Assembly: GCA_964494915.1 (NCBI GenBank)
Contig: CAZBTP010000001.1
Location: 6,792 to 70,791, forward strand
Length of the DNA: 64,000 bases
Source: Candidatus Woesearchaeota archaeon
GTDB lineage: Archaea > Nanobdellota > Nanobdellia > Pacearchaeales > GW2011-AR1
Direction of reading: 5' to 3'
The position numbers and the translations under genes were made by a program. Below, piece after piece: positions 35,043 to 60,425 of this stretch; within the stretch, counting starts at the first letter, position 1; each line of letters begins with the position of its first letter. The notes beneath the pieces are model-generated. The model ran no database searches and had not been told where the DNA came from. It was given only the letters and a program-made list of their open reading frames with translations.

Positions 35043-35128
35043 CGTCCCGGAGAGGACTCGAACCTCTGACCCCATGGTGTCTGTACGACGATAACAGCCA
35101 TGTGCTCTGCCAGCTGAGCTACCGGGAC
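35043..35128 (-). tRNA. tRNA-Asn (anticodon GUU) with 13-nt intron after position 37
   Basis: Cloverleaf GUCCCGG-UA-GCUCAGCUGGCAGAGC-A-CAUGG[CUGUUA+UCGUCGUACAGAC+A]CCAUG-GGGUC-AGAGGUUCGAGUCCUCU-CCGGGAC-G. No CCA encoded. Confidence 0.75.
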
Positions 35129-53989: not shown

Positions 53990-54922
53990 TTATTGGGAAG
54001 ACGATTGGCGAGGTCGGATATTAACAACTGCACCATTATTCTCTTTTGAGAGCTCACGTTCTTGATGATAAACCACAAACGAAACACGGTTGGTTTCTCG
54101 AGGGATATAGATATTGGTAACTGTTATAATGCGCTTTGTACCAATTGAATAATTTCCGATATCAAAGGTTTTTACCCTCTCTTCATTCGCTGAAAGATCA
54201 AGGAAGGCGTTTTTTGCTTCTTTGAGTCCGTCGTTTGCAATAATAACCTCAATATTCAGGTAGCGACCTGTTTTGTTTGCTTTTACTCTCTCTATAACAA
54301 GATCACTAAGTGCAGAATCACGGTAGAGATTGTTAATTTCCTCAATAATGTACGCATCTATTGTCTGCCGGCAGTTTGTAACCGGATAGATAATACTTGT
54401 TTTATGTGCATTATGGTCAAAGCCAAGAGCATGGAGAATTTCGTGCGTTGCTACTTGAGGAGTTTTGCAGCTCTCTGGACGGTAGAGTGCTATTTTTCCA
54501 GACGTGATCACCGCATATCGTGTCGCGTTGATAATCTCTGTTGGTCCGCCCTCCCCTGCAACAAAATGATTTTCTTGTGTTGGTTGTGGAGCAATGTTTT
54601 CACACGAAATCTCAATCTGAGCCTCTAAAGACTCATTAAACATAAGGATCGTTTTTTGTTGAAGAAGTGCAAAAGCCGCTCGCCCATCTGTTCTCTTTTT
54701 TTGGTCACAGGATTCACTAAAAGAATAAGATATAATCCTATCTGGATAGCGCATATTTGGGTAGAATTGCGAGCTTTTCGTTGAGATATTCTCGGTCGTT
54801 ATCGAAGTGAATGTCTCAAACTCTTGCGGCGGGGTAGGAAGATTTACCCAAAGAAAATAAATAGAAAATATAAGCAGGCTAAAAAGCACAAGGAAAACAA
54901 GTGCATTGAATACAACCCCCAT
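53990..54922 (-). CDS. membrane-anchored metzincin-type zinc metalloprotease
   Basis: N-terminal TM. HEILHALGFDH (HExxHxxGxxH). Confidence 0.65.
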   Translation of the reverse strand: MGVVFNALVFLVLFSLLIFSIYFLWVNLPTPPQEFETFTSITTENISTKSSQFYPNMRYPDRIISYSFSESCDQKKRTDGRAAFALLQQKTILMFNESLEAQIEISCENIAPQPTQENHFVAGEGGPTEIINATRYAVITSGKIALYRPESCKTPQVATHEILHALGFDHNAHKTSIIYPVTNCRQTIDAYIIEEINNLYRDSALSDLVIERVKANKTGRYLNIEVIIANDGLKEAKNAFLDLSANEERVKTFDIGNYSIGTKRIITVTNIYIPRETNRVSFVVYHQERELSKENNGAVVNIRPRQSSSQ

Positions 54923-54982: not shown

Positions 54983-55387
54983 ATGAGATACGAGTTTTTA
55001 GAGCATACTGCAGATATAAAGTTTAGAGCATACGGAAAAACCCTCAACGAGCTATTCGAGAATGCTGTATTAGCTGTTGCCGCGTATGTGGGCAAGGGTG
55101 AGAAAATACACCCAAGAAAAGCGCGAAGGATCGAGGTACATGGCACTGATATTGAAAATTTGCTCTATTCATTTTTAGATGAACTCATTTATTTAATGGA
55201 TGCTGAGAAGTTTGTGACAGCAAAGGCAGAGGTGTTTGTTCGCGGGAATAATCTAACCGCCGAACTGTACGGTGATGCTGCTACTCAATACGAAGGTTTA
55301 GATGCAATAAAGGCAGCAACCTATGCTGACATGTATGTTAAAAAAACGAGTAAAGGCTGGGAGTTGCAAGTAGTCCTGGACGTATAG
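54983..55387 (+). CDS. archease
   Basis: MRYEFLEHTADIKFRAYGKTLNELFENA canonical archease N-terminus. Start chosen at the internal ATG because the track ORF (from 54824) overlaps the upstream gene. Confidence 0.85.
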   Translation: MRYEFLEHTADIKFRAYGKTLNELFENAVLAVAAYVGKGEKIHPRKARRIEVHGTDIENLLYSFLDELIYLMDAEKFVTAKAEVFVRGNNLTAELYGDAATQYEGLDAIKAATYADMYVKKTSKGWELQVVLDV

Positions 55388-55431: not shown

Positions 55432-55460
55432 TAAAAAAATCTCACCGCCTACTTAGGCGG
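55432..55460 (-). terminator. hairpin plus U7 terminator for the minus-strand surface-protein gene
   Basis: ccgcc-tactta-ggcgg stem-loop followed on the minus strand by UUUUUUU (aaaaaaa at 55432-55438). Confidence 0.45.
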
Positions 55461-55703
55461 CGGAGGTACGAGACAAATCTCTGTCGCGGTATTACCTGCA
55501 GCATCTGTAGCTACAATTATCGCATCACTCTTTAGAGTAATGTGTACTATAATCGCTCCAGCTTGGCCGTTCGTACTTCCTATCTTTTTTAATGACGCAG
55601 TCGCACCCGGCGCTTCAGTGATCTTTACCTTATCACCAGAGGCAAATGGCCCGAATGGACCAGAACCAGCACTATCTGTGACAAAGATCTCGACATCTAT
55701 GTC

Positions 55704-56705
55704 TTAATCGTCTTTTCCTATAAGTTCGTAGAACCCGTCTTCATTCTGGCCGCCCTTCGAACCTGGAAGCGTCGTGCTTCCCGCTGGCGGAATATTTTTT
55801 CCGTGAGGGTTGACTGTCTCTATACAACCTATCTTCGGTGGGGTTTCATCATGAGGTTCTTGTAATGGACACGTCCCTGCTTCTACTTCAAAGGCCTCAT
55901 ACAGACTGTTAAATGCATCCTTAGCAAGAATCGCTTCTTTTGGAGCGTACGTTACCGGGTCACAGGTAAGATCCTCTACTCTTCCTGCTGTCGTAGCAAA
56001 CTGGGATATAAAATCGCCATTTGTTTTATTAATTCTCCGAATCTCAGCAGCACCATTACGACCTATATACAATGTATTCCCTGCTCCAACCACCACGCCG
56101 CTAACACTACAATCTGATATATTGTTAGCGTCCTTTGGCGTTACTGTGTTAAGAAGTGTTCCATTCGGTGTGAGATGGTAAACATTGCAGTTAACATCAG
56201 GGCTATAGTATATTGTGTCATCACTTCCATCGTATGCTAATCCATCAACGAGGGGTAGTCCACTAACATTAGGACTAAACTGAAAGGTTGCCAGTGCTGT
56301 ACCATTAAGAGTCTTATTACCGACATCAATGAGATAGACACTGTCATTGAAAGCTCCCCAGAGCAGATCCCTGCCCTGATCCCAGGCTAATGCACTAATA
56401 ATAATCGAATCATTGCTCGCGTTTATGATAGACTTTGTAGCTATAAGTGTTGCACTTCCATTCCCGCCGATAGGTGGTTGGTATATACCTATCACTGTTC
56501 CAGAACAGCTATTTGAGTTGATTGTAAGGTAGTATACACCATCAAACGTACCAGCGACTGAACAACCACCATTTCCAGGTAAACTAACCGTTCCTAATAG
56601 ATCTCCTGCAACTGCTAAAACTATACTAGCGGTCGTAATCATGAGAGATAGCATTATGAACATCTTTACGCTTCTCGCATTCAGAAATCTTTTCTGATTA
56701 TCCAT
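55704..56705 (-). CDS. secreted beta-propeller-like surface protein with many NxS/T sequons (ends at an in-frame TAA; 87 further sense codons follow)
   Basis: Signal/TM IMLSLMITTASIVLAVA. Repeated YY/NGT-containing blades. Confidence 0.55.
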   Translation of the reverse strand: MDNQKRFLNARSVKMFIMLSLMITTASIVLAVAGDLLGTVSLPGNGGCSVAGTFDGVYYLTINSNSCSGTVIGIYQPPIGGNGSATLIATKSIINASNDSIIISALAWDQGRDLLWGAFNDSVYLIDVGNKTLNGTALATFQFSPNVSGLPLVDGLAYDGSDDTIYYSPDVNCNVYHLTPNGTLLNTVTPKDANNISDCSVSGVVVGAGNTLYIGRNGAAEIRRINKTNGDFISQFATTAGRVEDLTCDPVTYAPKEAILAKDAFNSLYEAFEVEAGTCPLQEPHDETPPKIGCIETVNPHGKNIPPAGSTTLPGSKGGQNEDGFYELIGKDD

Positions 56706-56861
56706 CTTTTTATCCCTCCTTTCAGCTATTGATTGTAACTATAATTACATATCAATGGATTGTAACTATATATACATTATGCCAGTCTGCTAAGATTAAG
56801 CCCAGAATTTTTAATAACCGAGAATCGCAATAGTTAAAAGGTTCGTTGAGTATCGTTCTAC

Positions 56862-59693
56862 ATGGGAATAAAGAAAGTAAGTGAGAACGTCTGGGAAATC
56901 GAAAAAGAAGGAAGGATGCTAGTTCCAGGGATTGTGTTTGCCTCAGATAGCTTAATGGCTTCAATTCAAAAAGATAAGACACTCGAACAAGTGAAAAACG
57001 TTGCACAGCTTCCAGGAATTGTTGGATATTCTCTCGCGATGCCAGATGCACATCAAGGATATGGAATGGCTGTCGGAGGTGTAGCCGCGTTTGATTCCGA
57101 GCACGGAATTATTTCTCCCGGAGCAGTAGGTTATGACGTGAACTGCTTAACGGGCGATACAGAAATCCTTACAGAATTCGGAAATTCGATAAAAATTGAA
57201 GAATTTGAAAAATACAAATCAGAAATAGAAATTGAACAAAATAACCAAAAAATTAAAAAAATAATATTCTCGCGCAATCTGCCAACCTTAAACCTTGATA
57301 CAAAAAAAATAGAAGATAAATCTATTAATTTATTTATGTCAAGGCACGCGGAAGATGTATGTGAGATAACTTTAGCATCCGGCTTAAAAATTAAAGCTAC
57401 AAGCGATCATCCTTTTTTAACAAAACAAGGAATGAAAAAATTATCTGAATTAAAAGATAACACAGAACTAGCAATAAATACTTTTGAAGGAGTTGAATCC
57501 AGCGAAGTGATAAATGAAAAGGAAGCAATCCTTGCAAAGTTAATTGGTTATATGTTTGGGGATGGTTCCTTCTACGAAACAAAAGGAGAATTACGTGCGG
57601 TAGCTTATGGGCAAAAAGAAGACCTTGAAAAAATAAAGGAAGACTTATCAAGATTAGAAATAAATTCAAGTCTCTTTTGCAGAATAAGGGAGCATAAAAT
57701 ACAGACTCGTTATGGCGAAAAAAGTTTTAATTCTACAAACTGGGAGTTACATATTTATAATCAAGCTTTTCTTAAGATTTTAAAAGAAAGAGGTCTCACG
57801 TTAGGAAATAAAACAAGGCAGAAAATCAGGGTTCCCGAATGGATAAAAAAGTCAAGTAAATTAACAAAAAGATTATTTTTAGCTGGTTTTTTCGGCGCAG
57901 AAATGTCATCTCCTAAAACACTCTCTAGAACATGCTTTTGTAGCTCAACTATTAATCAGAATAAAATAACCTTACTAAAAAAAAACTGTAGAGATTTTCT
58001 TATAGACATCTCTCTGCTTTTAGAAGAATTTGGGATTAAAAATTACAAAATATCAGAGATGGAGGATTATATCAATAAATACAAAGAAAAAACATCAAGA
58101 TTAAGGCTAGCTTTATACGGAGAGGATACAATGTTAAAACTATGGAGAACAATAGGTTTTGAGTATAATAAAAAAAGACAGGACTTGGCAAACATAGCCT
58201 CTTTGTATATCTTACTAAAAAAGCAGGAAAATCAACGGAGGATTGAACTGGCTAGAAAAATAAAACAATACAGGAAAAATGGACTTACAATAGCAGAAGT
58301 AAAGGGACTCTTCCATAAAGAGATTAACGAAAGATTTATAGAAAGGCACTATTACGAAAATGCAAAACAAAGAATCAATCTTGATTTTATTACTTTTAAT
58401 GAGTTCAGAGATATAAAACTCAAAGAAATAAGAGAAATTGGGACTCTTCTTGACAAAATAATTTCTATTAAAAAGATAGAAGGCATACATAAAGTTTATG
58501 ATTTTAACATTCAGGATAATCATAATTTTATTGCAAATGGCTTTATAGTTTCGAATTGTGGAGTACGATTGCTTGCGACGAATATAACGAAAAAAGAATT
58601 TTTACCGAAACGAGGAATAGTATTAAATGAACTCTATAAGAATGTGCCGTCCGGCATCGGAAGAGGAACAGGAATAAAACTTTCAGATGCTGAATGTAAC
58701 GCGGTCTTAGAAAAGGGATTAAAATGGGCACGAGAAAAAGGATATGCGTCTGAGGAAGATATTGAGCACACAGAAGATAAGGGCTGTATTCAAGGAGCGA
58801 ATGCAGCAAAAGTTTCGCAAAGAGCAAAAGCAAGAGGCAGGGATCAGCTCGGGAGCATTGGGGCAGGAAATCATTTCCTTGAAGTACAAGAGATCGTGGA
58901 GATTTTTGATGATCGTGTTGCAAAAACGTTTGGATTAAACGAAGTCAAACAGATCGTAGTAATGATCCATACCGGCTCACGAGGGTTAGGACACCAAACT
59001 GCATCAGATTATATTATGAAAATGGAAAAAGAGTATGGATATAAACACCTTCCAGATCGCGAGTTGGCATATGCGCCAATTACTTCTGCTTTGGGAAAAG
59101 ACTATAGAGAAGCAATGGCGAGTGCTGCTAATTTCGCATTTACAAATCGGCAGATGATCACGCATCTTATAAGAAAAAGTTTTGAGAAGTATTTTCCAAA
59201 CGCGAAACTAAGCGTTGTGTATGATATCGCACATAATATTGCGAAGCTTGAGGAGTTCGAAGTCGAGAACGAGAAAAAAATATTGTGCGTACACCGAAAA
59301 GGTGCAACTCGATCATTTGGACCAGGAAGAAAAGAAATTCCGAGCGATTATAGAGAGGTAGGCTGTCCGATTTTTATTCCAGGAAGTATGGGAACATTTT
59401 CGTATGTCCTCGTCGGAACAAAGAAAGCACGTGAGATTTCGTTTGCGTCAACAGCCCATGGTGCTGGACGAATGCTATCAAGGACGTACGCAAAACAACA
59501 TATTTCTGCTGAGCATTTAAAACAAGGGCTAGCAGAAAGAGATATTATAATTAAAGCTGGATCGCTAAAAGGCATGATTGAAGAAGCGCCAGAGGCGTAT
59601 AAGGATGTGAGCGAGGTTGTTCGTGTTTCACATGCGCTCGGTATTGGAAGCGTAGTTGCAAAGCTGAAACCATTAGCCGTAATGAAAGGGTGA
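56862..59693 (+). CDS. rtcB: RNA-splicing ligase RtcB containing a 471-aa LAGLIDADG intein
   Basis: PDAHQGYG, GYDVN-CGVRL split by the intein, GAGNHF, HTGSRGLGHQ. Extein 472 aa. Confidence 0.9.
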   Translation: MGIKKVSENVWEIEKEGRMLVPGIVFASDSLMASIQKDKTLEQVKNVAQLPGIVGYSLAMPDAHQGYGMAVGGVAAFDSEHGIISPGAVGYDVNCLTGDTEILTEFGNSIKIEEFEKYKSEIEIEQNNQKIKKIIFSRNLPTLNLDTKKIEDKSINLFMSRHAEDVCEITLASGLKIKATSDHPFLTKQGMKKLSELKDNTELAINTFEGVESSEVINEKEAILAKLIGYMFGDGSFYETKGELRAVAYGQKEDLEKIKEDLSRLEINSSLFCRIREHKIQTRYGEKSFNSTNWELHIYNQAFLKILKERGLTLGNKTRQKIRVPEWIKKSSKLTKRLFLAGFFGAEMSSPKTLSRTCFCSSTINQNKITLLKKNCRDFLIDISLLLEEFGIKNYKISEMEDYINKYKEKTSRLRLALYGEDTMLKLWRTIGFEYNKKRQDLANIASLYILLKKQENQRRIELARKIKQYRKNGLTIAEVKGLFHKEINERFIERHYYENAKQRINLDFITFNEFRDIKLKEIREIGTLLDKIISIKKIEGIHKVYDFNIQDNHNFIANGFIVSNCGVRLLATNITKKEFLPKRGIVLNELYKNVPSGIGRGTGIKLSDAECNAVLEKGLKWAREKGYASEEDIEHTEDKGCIQGANAAKVSQRAKARGRDQLGSIGAGNHFLEVQEIVEIFDDRVAKTFGLNEVKQIVVMIHTGSRGLGHQTASDYIMKMEKEYGYKHLPDRELAYAPITSALGKDYREAMASAANFAFTNRQMITHLIRKSFEKYFPNAKLSVVYDIAHNIAKLEEFEVENEKKILCVHRKGATRSFGPGRKEIPSDYREVGCPIFIPGSMGTFSYVLVGTKKAREISFASTAHGAGRMLSRTYAKQHISAEHLKQGLAERDIIIKAGSLKGMIEEAPEAYKDVSEVVRVSHALGIGSVVAKLKPLAVMKG
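57144..58556 (+). mobile_element. intein with LAGLIDADG homing endonuclease in RtcB at the GYDVN/CGVRL site
   Basis: Starts CLTGDTEIL (block A), LIGYMFGDGSF and FLAGFFGAEMS LAGLIDADG motifs, ends IVSN followed by Cys. Terminal Asn is preceded by Ser rather than His. Confidence 0.85.
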
Positions 59694-59696
59694 TGT

Positions 59697-60425
59697 ATGA
59701 AGGTTATTATTGTTCGTAACAAAAACGAAGGAGGAGCACGTGCAGCAAAGCTCGTTTCCGATATTATTCAAAACAAAAAGAACTGTACACTCGGATTAGC
59801 GACAGGAAAAACAATGATTCCTTTTTATCGAGCGCTCATCAGCGCGGCGCATACAAAGAAGATAGATTTTTCTCGAGTAAAGACCTTTAATATTGATGAG
59901 TTTTATGGTCTAAACACTCCCGAGAAGGGAAGTTTTCGACATTTTATGGATTCACATTTTTTTCACAGAGTAAATATAAGCAAGAAAAATATTCATTTTT
60001 TAGATGGGAAAAAAAAGGATTATAAAAAAGAGTGTAACGAATACGAACGTGCAATAAAACACAAGGAGGGAATCGATATAGCAATCGTGGGTATCGGAAA
60101 AAACAGGCATATTGGTTTTAATGAGCCCGGATCGTCTTTTGCAAGCAGAACGCGAAAAGTGAGATTGCGCGATGAAACACGGCACGCAAATGCCTGGCTG
60201 TTTGAATCCTTTTCGCGCGTGCCTCAGTATGCGCTAACAATGGGTATTGAAACAATACTCGCTTCACGAAAGATTATCTTGTTAGCCTTCGGAAAAGAAA
60301 AAGCAACTGCTGTTGCAGCCACCTTCAAGCATGTCACACAACAAGTGCCAGCGAGCGTCCTACAACGTCATACTAATGTAACGTTTATTATCGACCGCGC
60401 GGCAGCCAAGCGCGTGTTTAAATAA
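59697..60425 (+). CDS. nagB: glucosamine-6-phosphate deaminase/isomerase family (NagB-like)
   Basis: TLGLATGKTMIPFY, FNIDEFYGL, GIGKNRHIGFNEPGSSFASRTR. Confidence 0.85.
   Translation: MKVIIVRNKNEGGARAAKLVSDIIQNKKNCTLGLATGKTMIPFYRALISAAHTKKIDFSRVKTFNIDEFYGLNTPEKGSFRHFMDSHFFHRVNISKKNIHFLDGKKKDYKKECNEYERAIKHKEGIDIAIVGIGKNRHIGFNEPGSSFASRTRKVRLRDETRHANAWLFESFSRVPQYALTMGIETILASRKIILLAFGKEKATAVAATFKHVTQQVPASVLQRHTNVTFIIDRAAAKRVFK

Follow-up and report, generated by a model that had tools for sequence, protein, structure and literature searches.

Prokaryotic genes interrupted by a nonsense mutation, young pseudogenes among them, carry one lineage-specific in-frame stop codon in a frame that is continuous in their orthologs. 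The remnant downstream of the stop has no start codon, and the original stop codon and terminator are kept. UAA is usually the least leaky of the stop codons. In Archaea, interrupted coding sequences with a conserved downstream part are known from selenocysteine (Sec) insertion at UGA, from pyrrolysine (Pyl) insertion at UAG and from the fucA1 gene of Saccharolobus solfataricus, which uses a -1 frameshift. Demonstrated readthrough in Archaea is limited to Sec/Pyl insertion at UGA and UAG, according to a review (PMC8211752) and to PMC8037382.

In a Candidatus Woesearchaeota archaeon, within the 64-kb stretch of DNA analysed here (64,000 nucleotides, hereafter the window), the gene of a probable secreted or surface beta-propeller protein is interrupted by an in-frame TAA. 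A sequence-only reading of the window, made without database searches, had listed a recent nonsense mutation among several options, and this option is the one favoured here: the stop is unique among the homologs listed, the orthologs are continuous and the extension behind the stop has not decayed. We put at roughly 0.78 the probability that a recent, lineage-specific nonsense mutation to UAA truncates the protein.

Organization of the interrupted gene

Translation of the minus strand over 56705..55438 gives 333 sense codons, the TAA, 84 further sense codons and a TAG, corresponding to an ancestral gene of 418 codons (Table 1). The in-frame TAA and the open frame continuing behind it, both described by the sequence-only reading, are reproduced with exactly the same peptide string. 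Two of its figures have to be corrected: the extension, given as 87 codons, counts 84 by translation, and the TAG, placed at about 55441, occupies 55451-55449. The immediate context of the premature stop is GGAAAAGACGAT-TAA-GACATAGATGTC, UAA being followed by GAC, while the extension opens with DIDVEIFVTDSAGSGPFGPF and closes with TEICLVPPPPK directly before the TAG. The extension contains no in-frame ATG, GTG or TTG and therefore cannot be a separate gene. The 84 codons are the cut-off rest of the C-terminal domain and now most likely form an untranslated 3′ region. The 333-aa product consists of an N-terminal signal or transmembrane segment, the beta-propeller and, from the C-terminal domain, the initial ~45 residues. 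The database entry for this protein (P0001, NCBI/ENA) is 312 aa long and starts at the internal Met at 56642 (MITTASIV...) instead of 56705. The upstream ATG, giving 333 aa, is preferred because of the GGAGGG motif at 8-nt spacing and because of the ortholog alignment.

Table 1. Features of the interrupted gene, with coordinates in the window
Feature	Coordinates	Strand	Basis
Shine-Dalgarno-like GGAGGG, at a distance of 8 nt before the ATG at 56705	56714..56719	-	read from the sequence; putative role
Truncated gene, 333 aa, from the ATG at 56705 to the TAA	55704..56705	-	ORF list and translation
Hydrophobic N-terminus (residues 1-33, MDNQKRF...IVLAVAG), a signal peptide or membrane anchor	56607..56705	-	sequence; secretion predicted
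NHL/YVTN-type beta-propeller, about residues 35-285, ending ...FEVEAGTCPL	55851..56603	-	profile, model, Foldseek
C-terminal conserved domain of ~130 aa, an FN3/Ig-like beta-sandwich in which the TAA falls behind the second strand	55452..55841	-	
Premature in-frame TAA, codon 334	55704..55706	-	translation, ortholog alignment, Logan assemblies
84 in-frame sense codons (DIDVEIF...CLVPPPPK)	55452..55703	-	translation, codon score
TAG, original stop codon of the gene	55449..55451	-	orthologs likewise stop straight after ...PPK
Terminator-like hairpin (8 pairs, 4-nt loop), AGA and T7	55433..55462	-	terminator scan, fold; putative function

The extension does not look like a chance open frame. The probability of 84 stop-free codons is ~0.005, by arithmetic from about 41% GC, and the codon-usage score of the extension (0.24) is that of the genes of the window (0.23 +/- 0.08). 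Furthermore, the 130-aa C-terminal segment used as a query retrieved 428 homologs, the best with E = 3.5e-57. The earlier opinion that an extension of this length was unlikely to arise by chance is thus borne out by the stop-free probability, by gene-like codon usage and by hundreds of homologs.

A terminator scan recovers the hairpin and the T7 run that had been noticed at the TAG. The stem-loop, CGCCGCCT-AAGT-AGGCGGTG, lies at 55462-55443 and is followed by AGA and by the T7 at 55439-55433; the T of the TAG is the last base of the loop, and its AG opens the 3′ arm. The fold of the hairpin (-15.3 kcal/mol, z = -1.18) is by itself not statistically unusual, and the scan counted 2 terminator-like sites where 1.3 were expected. 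T-runs just past the stop codon, like the one past the TAG in the window, were present in two of the three orthologs examined. The same scan detected no terminator-like element after the premature TAA.

Domain architecture of the protein

The sequence-only reading had called the protein beta-propeller-like, an assignment on which NHL/Pizza profile matches, an AlphaFold2 model and Foldseek agree. The profile built from alignment A2 matches Pizza/NHL propellers in the PDB with E = 7.5e-7, in addition to a teneurin-like protein. The closest ortholog (P0002) was modelled by AlphaFold2 with a mean pLDDT of 88.8, with propeller strands at residues 30-271 and a C-terminal beta-sandwich at 287-407; a helix is predicted at residues 7-19, where the pLDDT is low. 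Foldseek retrieved NHL, YVTN and WD40 propellers at E about 1e-8, including the NHL domain of TRIM2, the S-layer protein 1l0q, which combines a YVTN propeller with a PKD domain, and glutaminyl cyclase. The joined protein had no match in Pfam/NCBIfam, and the Pfam NHL model did not match it either.

With about seven to nine strands, the C-terminal domain is a beta-sandwich of the FN3/Ig/PKD type. Its signature, PPKIGC.ETVNPHG..PPAG.TTLPG.KGGQNEDGFY ... C.VPPPPK, ends with the final residues of the protein. When the 130-aa segment was compared with Pfam/NCBIfam, the only match was a sub-threshold one to TrmI-like_N (E = 0.11). In the P0002 model, the premature stop maps just past the strand at 319-327, the second of the sandwich, and 7 of the 9 secondary-structure elements of the sandwich are lost with it (the strand and helix elements at 335-407). 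The truncated product keeps Cys294 and loses Cys411, both of which are invariant columns in alignment A1; the two may form a disulfide. The propeller of the truncated protein would probably still fold, since natural members of the family end right after the propeller; the propeller-only homologs P0107, P0110 and P0120 end in ...GTCPLYP or GTCGP...

The C-terminal domain also occurs as a stand-alone protein of ~148 aa, which is probably secreted, its consensus beginning with a signal-like segment. The domain ranges over CPR bacteria, Chloroflexota, Gammaproteobacteria, Actinomycetota and archaea (P0122-P0241; L014-L040). Its most conserved motif sits in a long, low-confidence loop of the FN3/Ig-like fold.

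Conservation across the position of the stop codon

The translation spanning the stop retrieved 675 relatives in the homolog search. Eleven of these are full-length orthologs of 404-438 aa and 43-75% identity, which align with the joined protein from end to end and show no break at the TAA position. All 11, as well as the extension, terminate in C-x-V-P-x-x-P-K, mostly as ...CLVPPPPK. At the column of the TAA, the orthologs have T, S, I, V or L, a variable position, as is also seen at the codon level. Among the matches listed, 24 homologs carry the NEDGF/Y motif: the window protein, represented by two entries, ends 13 residues past the motif, and the other 22 (from the 121 proteins listed after the first search) run on for 91-104 residues. 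Similarly, none of the best 120 of the 428 homologs of the C-terminal domain is interrupted, their query coverage being 83-100%. Members of the family were found in metagenome-assembled genomes of Chloroflexota, CPR/Patescibacteria, Gammaproteobacteria, Nanoarchaeota and Methanomassiliicoccales. A scan of GTDB representatives gave orthologs at 60% identity or less, and tblastn found no paralogs of the truncated gene in the window.

The extension retains all the invariant columns of the family. The identity ratio of extension to N-terminal part is 1.06 in pairs with the window protein and 1.08 in pairs of intact orthologs, and its pN (0.17-0.22 against 0.19-0.23) gives no excess of non-synonymous divergence. 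Synonymous sites are saturated (pS 0.64-0.84) relative to the nearest ortholog, so that for dating by dN/dS the non-synonymous comparison alone is usable. No sign of relaxed constraint was seen in the extension, which has no additional stops or frameshifts and no raised pN. The ortholog alignment that had been proposed as a check thus shows orthologs reading past the TAA position and downstream codons under strong conservation. Because the extension is undecayed and as conserved as in intact orthologs, the mutation is taken to be recent. Purifying selection therefore acted on the frame during practically the whole period since its divergence from the nearest known ortholog. The undecayed state of the extension fits a very recent event, and does not by itself prove that translation has been lost.

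Genomic context

The neighbouring RtcB tRNA ligase gene (943 aa, 56862-59693, plus strand) is divergent from the truncated gene and contains an intein with a LAGLIDADG endonuclease domain at about residues 130-565. On the opposite side of the truncated gene lies an archease gene (54983-55387, plus strand). Together with an intron-bearing tRNA, this pairing of archease with an intein-containing RtcB marks the gene content of the window as archaeal. The gene at 53990-54922 (minus strand) encodes a probable secreted zinc metalloprotease with an HEILHALGFDH motif and Pfam matches to Astacin and Matrixin, together with a weak, sub-threshold match to CARDB. This neighbour places the truncated gene among other genes for surface or secreted proteins.

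Antisense to the extension is a 55-aa ORF (55540-55707, plus strand), which the annotation of the Logan assembly lists as a gene. Most likely it is a shadow ORF that owes its call solely to the interruption of the real frame.

In its default mode, ARAGORN reports a tRNA-Stop(tta) with anticodon UUA at 35043-35128 (minus strand), which is a trap for suppressor-tRNA searches in this window. When introns are allowed, the same program reads 35043-35128 as tRNA-Asn(GUU) interrupted at the canonical 37/38 site by an intron of 13 nt, TCGTCGTACAGAC. The spliced tRNA-Asn has the canonical 73 nt, and in the Rfam alignment the unspliced sequence appears with a 14-nt insertion in the anticodon loop. On both grounds, the suppressor tRNA was rejected as a candidate.

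Origin of the premature stop codon

Over the TAA, the extension and the terminator, the contigs that Logan assembled from SRR8863434 (3839 nt) and from SRR8863435 (1967 nt) match the window at 100% identity, and they continue for 865 and 483 nt beyond the TAA, respectively. Three further assemblies (two Logan, one ENA) also contain the 333-aa product, and the entry from the original genome, P0001, likewise ends at the TAA. Both Logan runs belong to a single BioProject, PRJNA512237 (PMC11549363), and are possibly the genome's own source reads; they exclude an assembly error and do not amount to an independent population. The idea that the true genome has a sense codon, the TAA being an artefact of the consensus, draws on the source being a metagenome-assembled genome and on the fact that changing one base would be enough to give a sense codon again. 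The ENA contig k139_607097 of ERZ27284380 (L003), which breaks off right after the 'TA' of the premature TAA, could also reflect ambiguity at that codon. However, random substitution errors do not reach the consensus twice, whereas here the identical TAA was assembled separately from each run, which makes the sequencing error entertained by the sequence-only reading unlikely, and error of either kind, in sequencing or assembly, is extremely improbable. L003 is also what speaks for a segregating polymorphism, in which a null TAA allele would exist beside an intact one (e.g., TAY for Tyr) and the consensus would represent the null; this is a variant of the nonsense-mutation reading and compatible with it, not another mechanism. 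The contig corresponds to 57389-55705 of the window with one mismatch in 1685 nt (T>C on the minus strand, at 56031), and therefore represents a slightly different strain whose contig lacks just the last base of the stop. If 55704 were variable, a branch in the de Bruijn graph would be expected at this point, and the end of the contig may be such a branch at a polymorphic third base. Such an end has other possible causes, however, such as a drop in coverage or a variant one k-mer length upstream, and the intact allele was not found: the best match to the 130-aa segment in the homolog search is 76% identical, an exact DNA pattern in which the codon was left as NNN had 0 matches in JGI metagenomes, and look-ups for a contig continuing L003, by way of the 55-aa antisense ORF and of two versions of the archease, returned a known Logan contig or nothing. 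A polymorphism is unlikely.

If UAA were reassigned to an amino acid throughout the genome, the tRNA for it would be the default ARAGORN call at 35043-35128, which is in fact tRNA-Asn(gtt) with its 13-nt intron at position 38, and no tRNA with anticodon UUA was found within the 64-kb window. Furthermore, TAA ends 27 of the 54 non-overlapping long ORFs of the window, among them a Glucosamine_iso-family gene (59697-60425) whose TAA lies near the end of its Pfam profile. Behind the other TAAs there are short or non-coding-like stretches, or else a gene that begins with a start codon of its own. Among the 54 long ORFs, the extension is the sole post-stop stretch of at least 50 codons that is gene-like, has no start and is overlapped by no selected ORF. 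An inventory of every stop flanked on either side by a long open stretch revealed no second interrupted gene in the window, the remaining ones being explained by a further gene in the same frame that has its own start or by shadows of genes on the opposite strand. Reassignment is therefore refuted for the 64-kb window and its probability is practically nil, in line with the initial view that the genetic code is not recoded. Programmed or leaky readthrough of the UAA would insert an amino acid at codon 334 and yield both a propeller-only form and a full-length form with propeller and beta-sandwich. Such a mechanism would account for an extension that is intact, in frame, without a start and as conserved as in orthologs, and for the transcription terminator lying past it; continued translation also predicts the absence of a second lesion in the 84 codons. 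However, the stop is not conserved, as no ortholog or listed homolog of the C-terminal domain has one here, the window holds no suppressor tRNA, and no significant RNA structure was detected (a 116-nt fold around and after the stop has z = -1.28, with 24 of 200 shuffles as good). The intact downstream extension thus appears to be the one positive argument for programmed readthrough, which is quite improbable. It is very improbable that partial UAA readthrough in this archaeon produces two surface isoforms, the propeller alone and the propeller with the VPPPPK-terminated beta-sandwich; if true, this would be the first stop-codon readthrough in Archaea that is neither Sec nor Pyl.

With the nonsense mutation as the favoured explanation, a single-base substitution would have created the UAA at codon 334, which is variable among orthologs and lies between strands two and three of the sandwich. 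The ancestral codon would have been one step from TAA, TCA (Ser) or TTA (Leu) being those that match residues of the orthologs. Translation would stop at the UAA and release the 333-aa product, made of the propeller and a ~45-residue remnant, while transcription would still reach the original hairpin/T7 terminator about 260 nt onward. The 84 codons would then be an untranslated relic, too young to have decayed, and the gene a truncation allele or a nascent pseudogene. The event would be an ordinary one, a nonsense allele in a metagenome-assembled genome.

Implications for annotation and function

Truncated gene or pseudogene would be the better annotation for this locus; gene callers give a "hypothetical protein" of 312 or 333 aa and the spurious 55-aa antisense ORF. 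For a small and probably symbiotic archaeon, the loss of a C-terminal surface domain could reflect a change in its interaction with a host or phage. The ~130-aa domain terminated by VPPPPK, widespread and without a Pfam/NCBIfam model, may be a more useful by-product of the analysis than the stop codon.

Comparison with known systems

Like the nonsense-mutated genes and young pseudogenes of prokaryotes, the gene has one lineage-specific in-frame stop where its orthologs are continuous, a start-less downstream remnant, and its original stop and terminator in place. It differs from them in having no second lesion and no detectable excess divergence, which points to a very young event, and in having an autonomous N-terminal domain that may keep its function, which suggests a truncation rather than a dead gene. 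With archaeal Sec and Pyl recoding and with the frameshifted fucA1, it shares an interrupted coding sequence whose downstream part is conserved. In contrast to the known cases of archaeal recoding, which use UGA, UAG or frameshifting (PMC8211752; PMC8037382), the stop is a UAA that is not conserved in homologs, and there is no stimulatory structure, slippery site or dedicated tRNA in the window.

At the level of the protein, the order of an N-terminal signal or anchor, a propeller and an Ig-like domain recalls archaeal surface proteins such as the S-layer fragment 1l0q of Methanosarcina mazei, with its tandem YVTN propeller and PKD domains, and the NHL/YVTN-type propeller itself recalls NHL-repeat propellers such as the TRIM2 NHL domain and the Pizza designs derived from PknD. 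The likeness to solved propeller and Ig structures is one of fold only, at about 10-13% identity. Unlike known proteins that combine a propeller with an Ig domain, this family has a C-terminal signature of its own (NPHG, PPAG, GGQNEDGFY and C.VPPPPK) and a form in which the C-terminal domain stands alone as a small protein.
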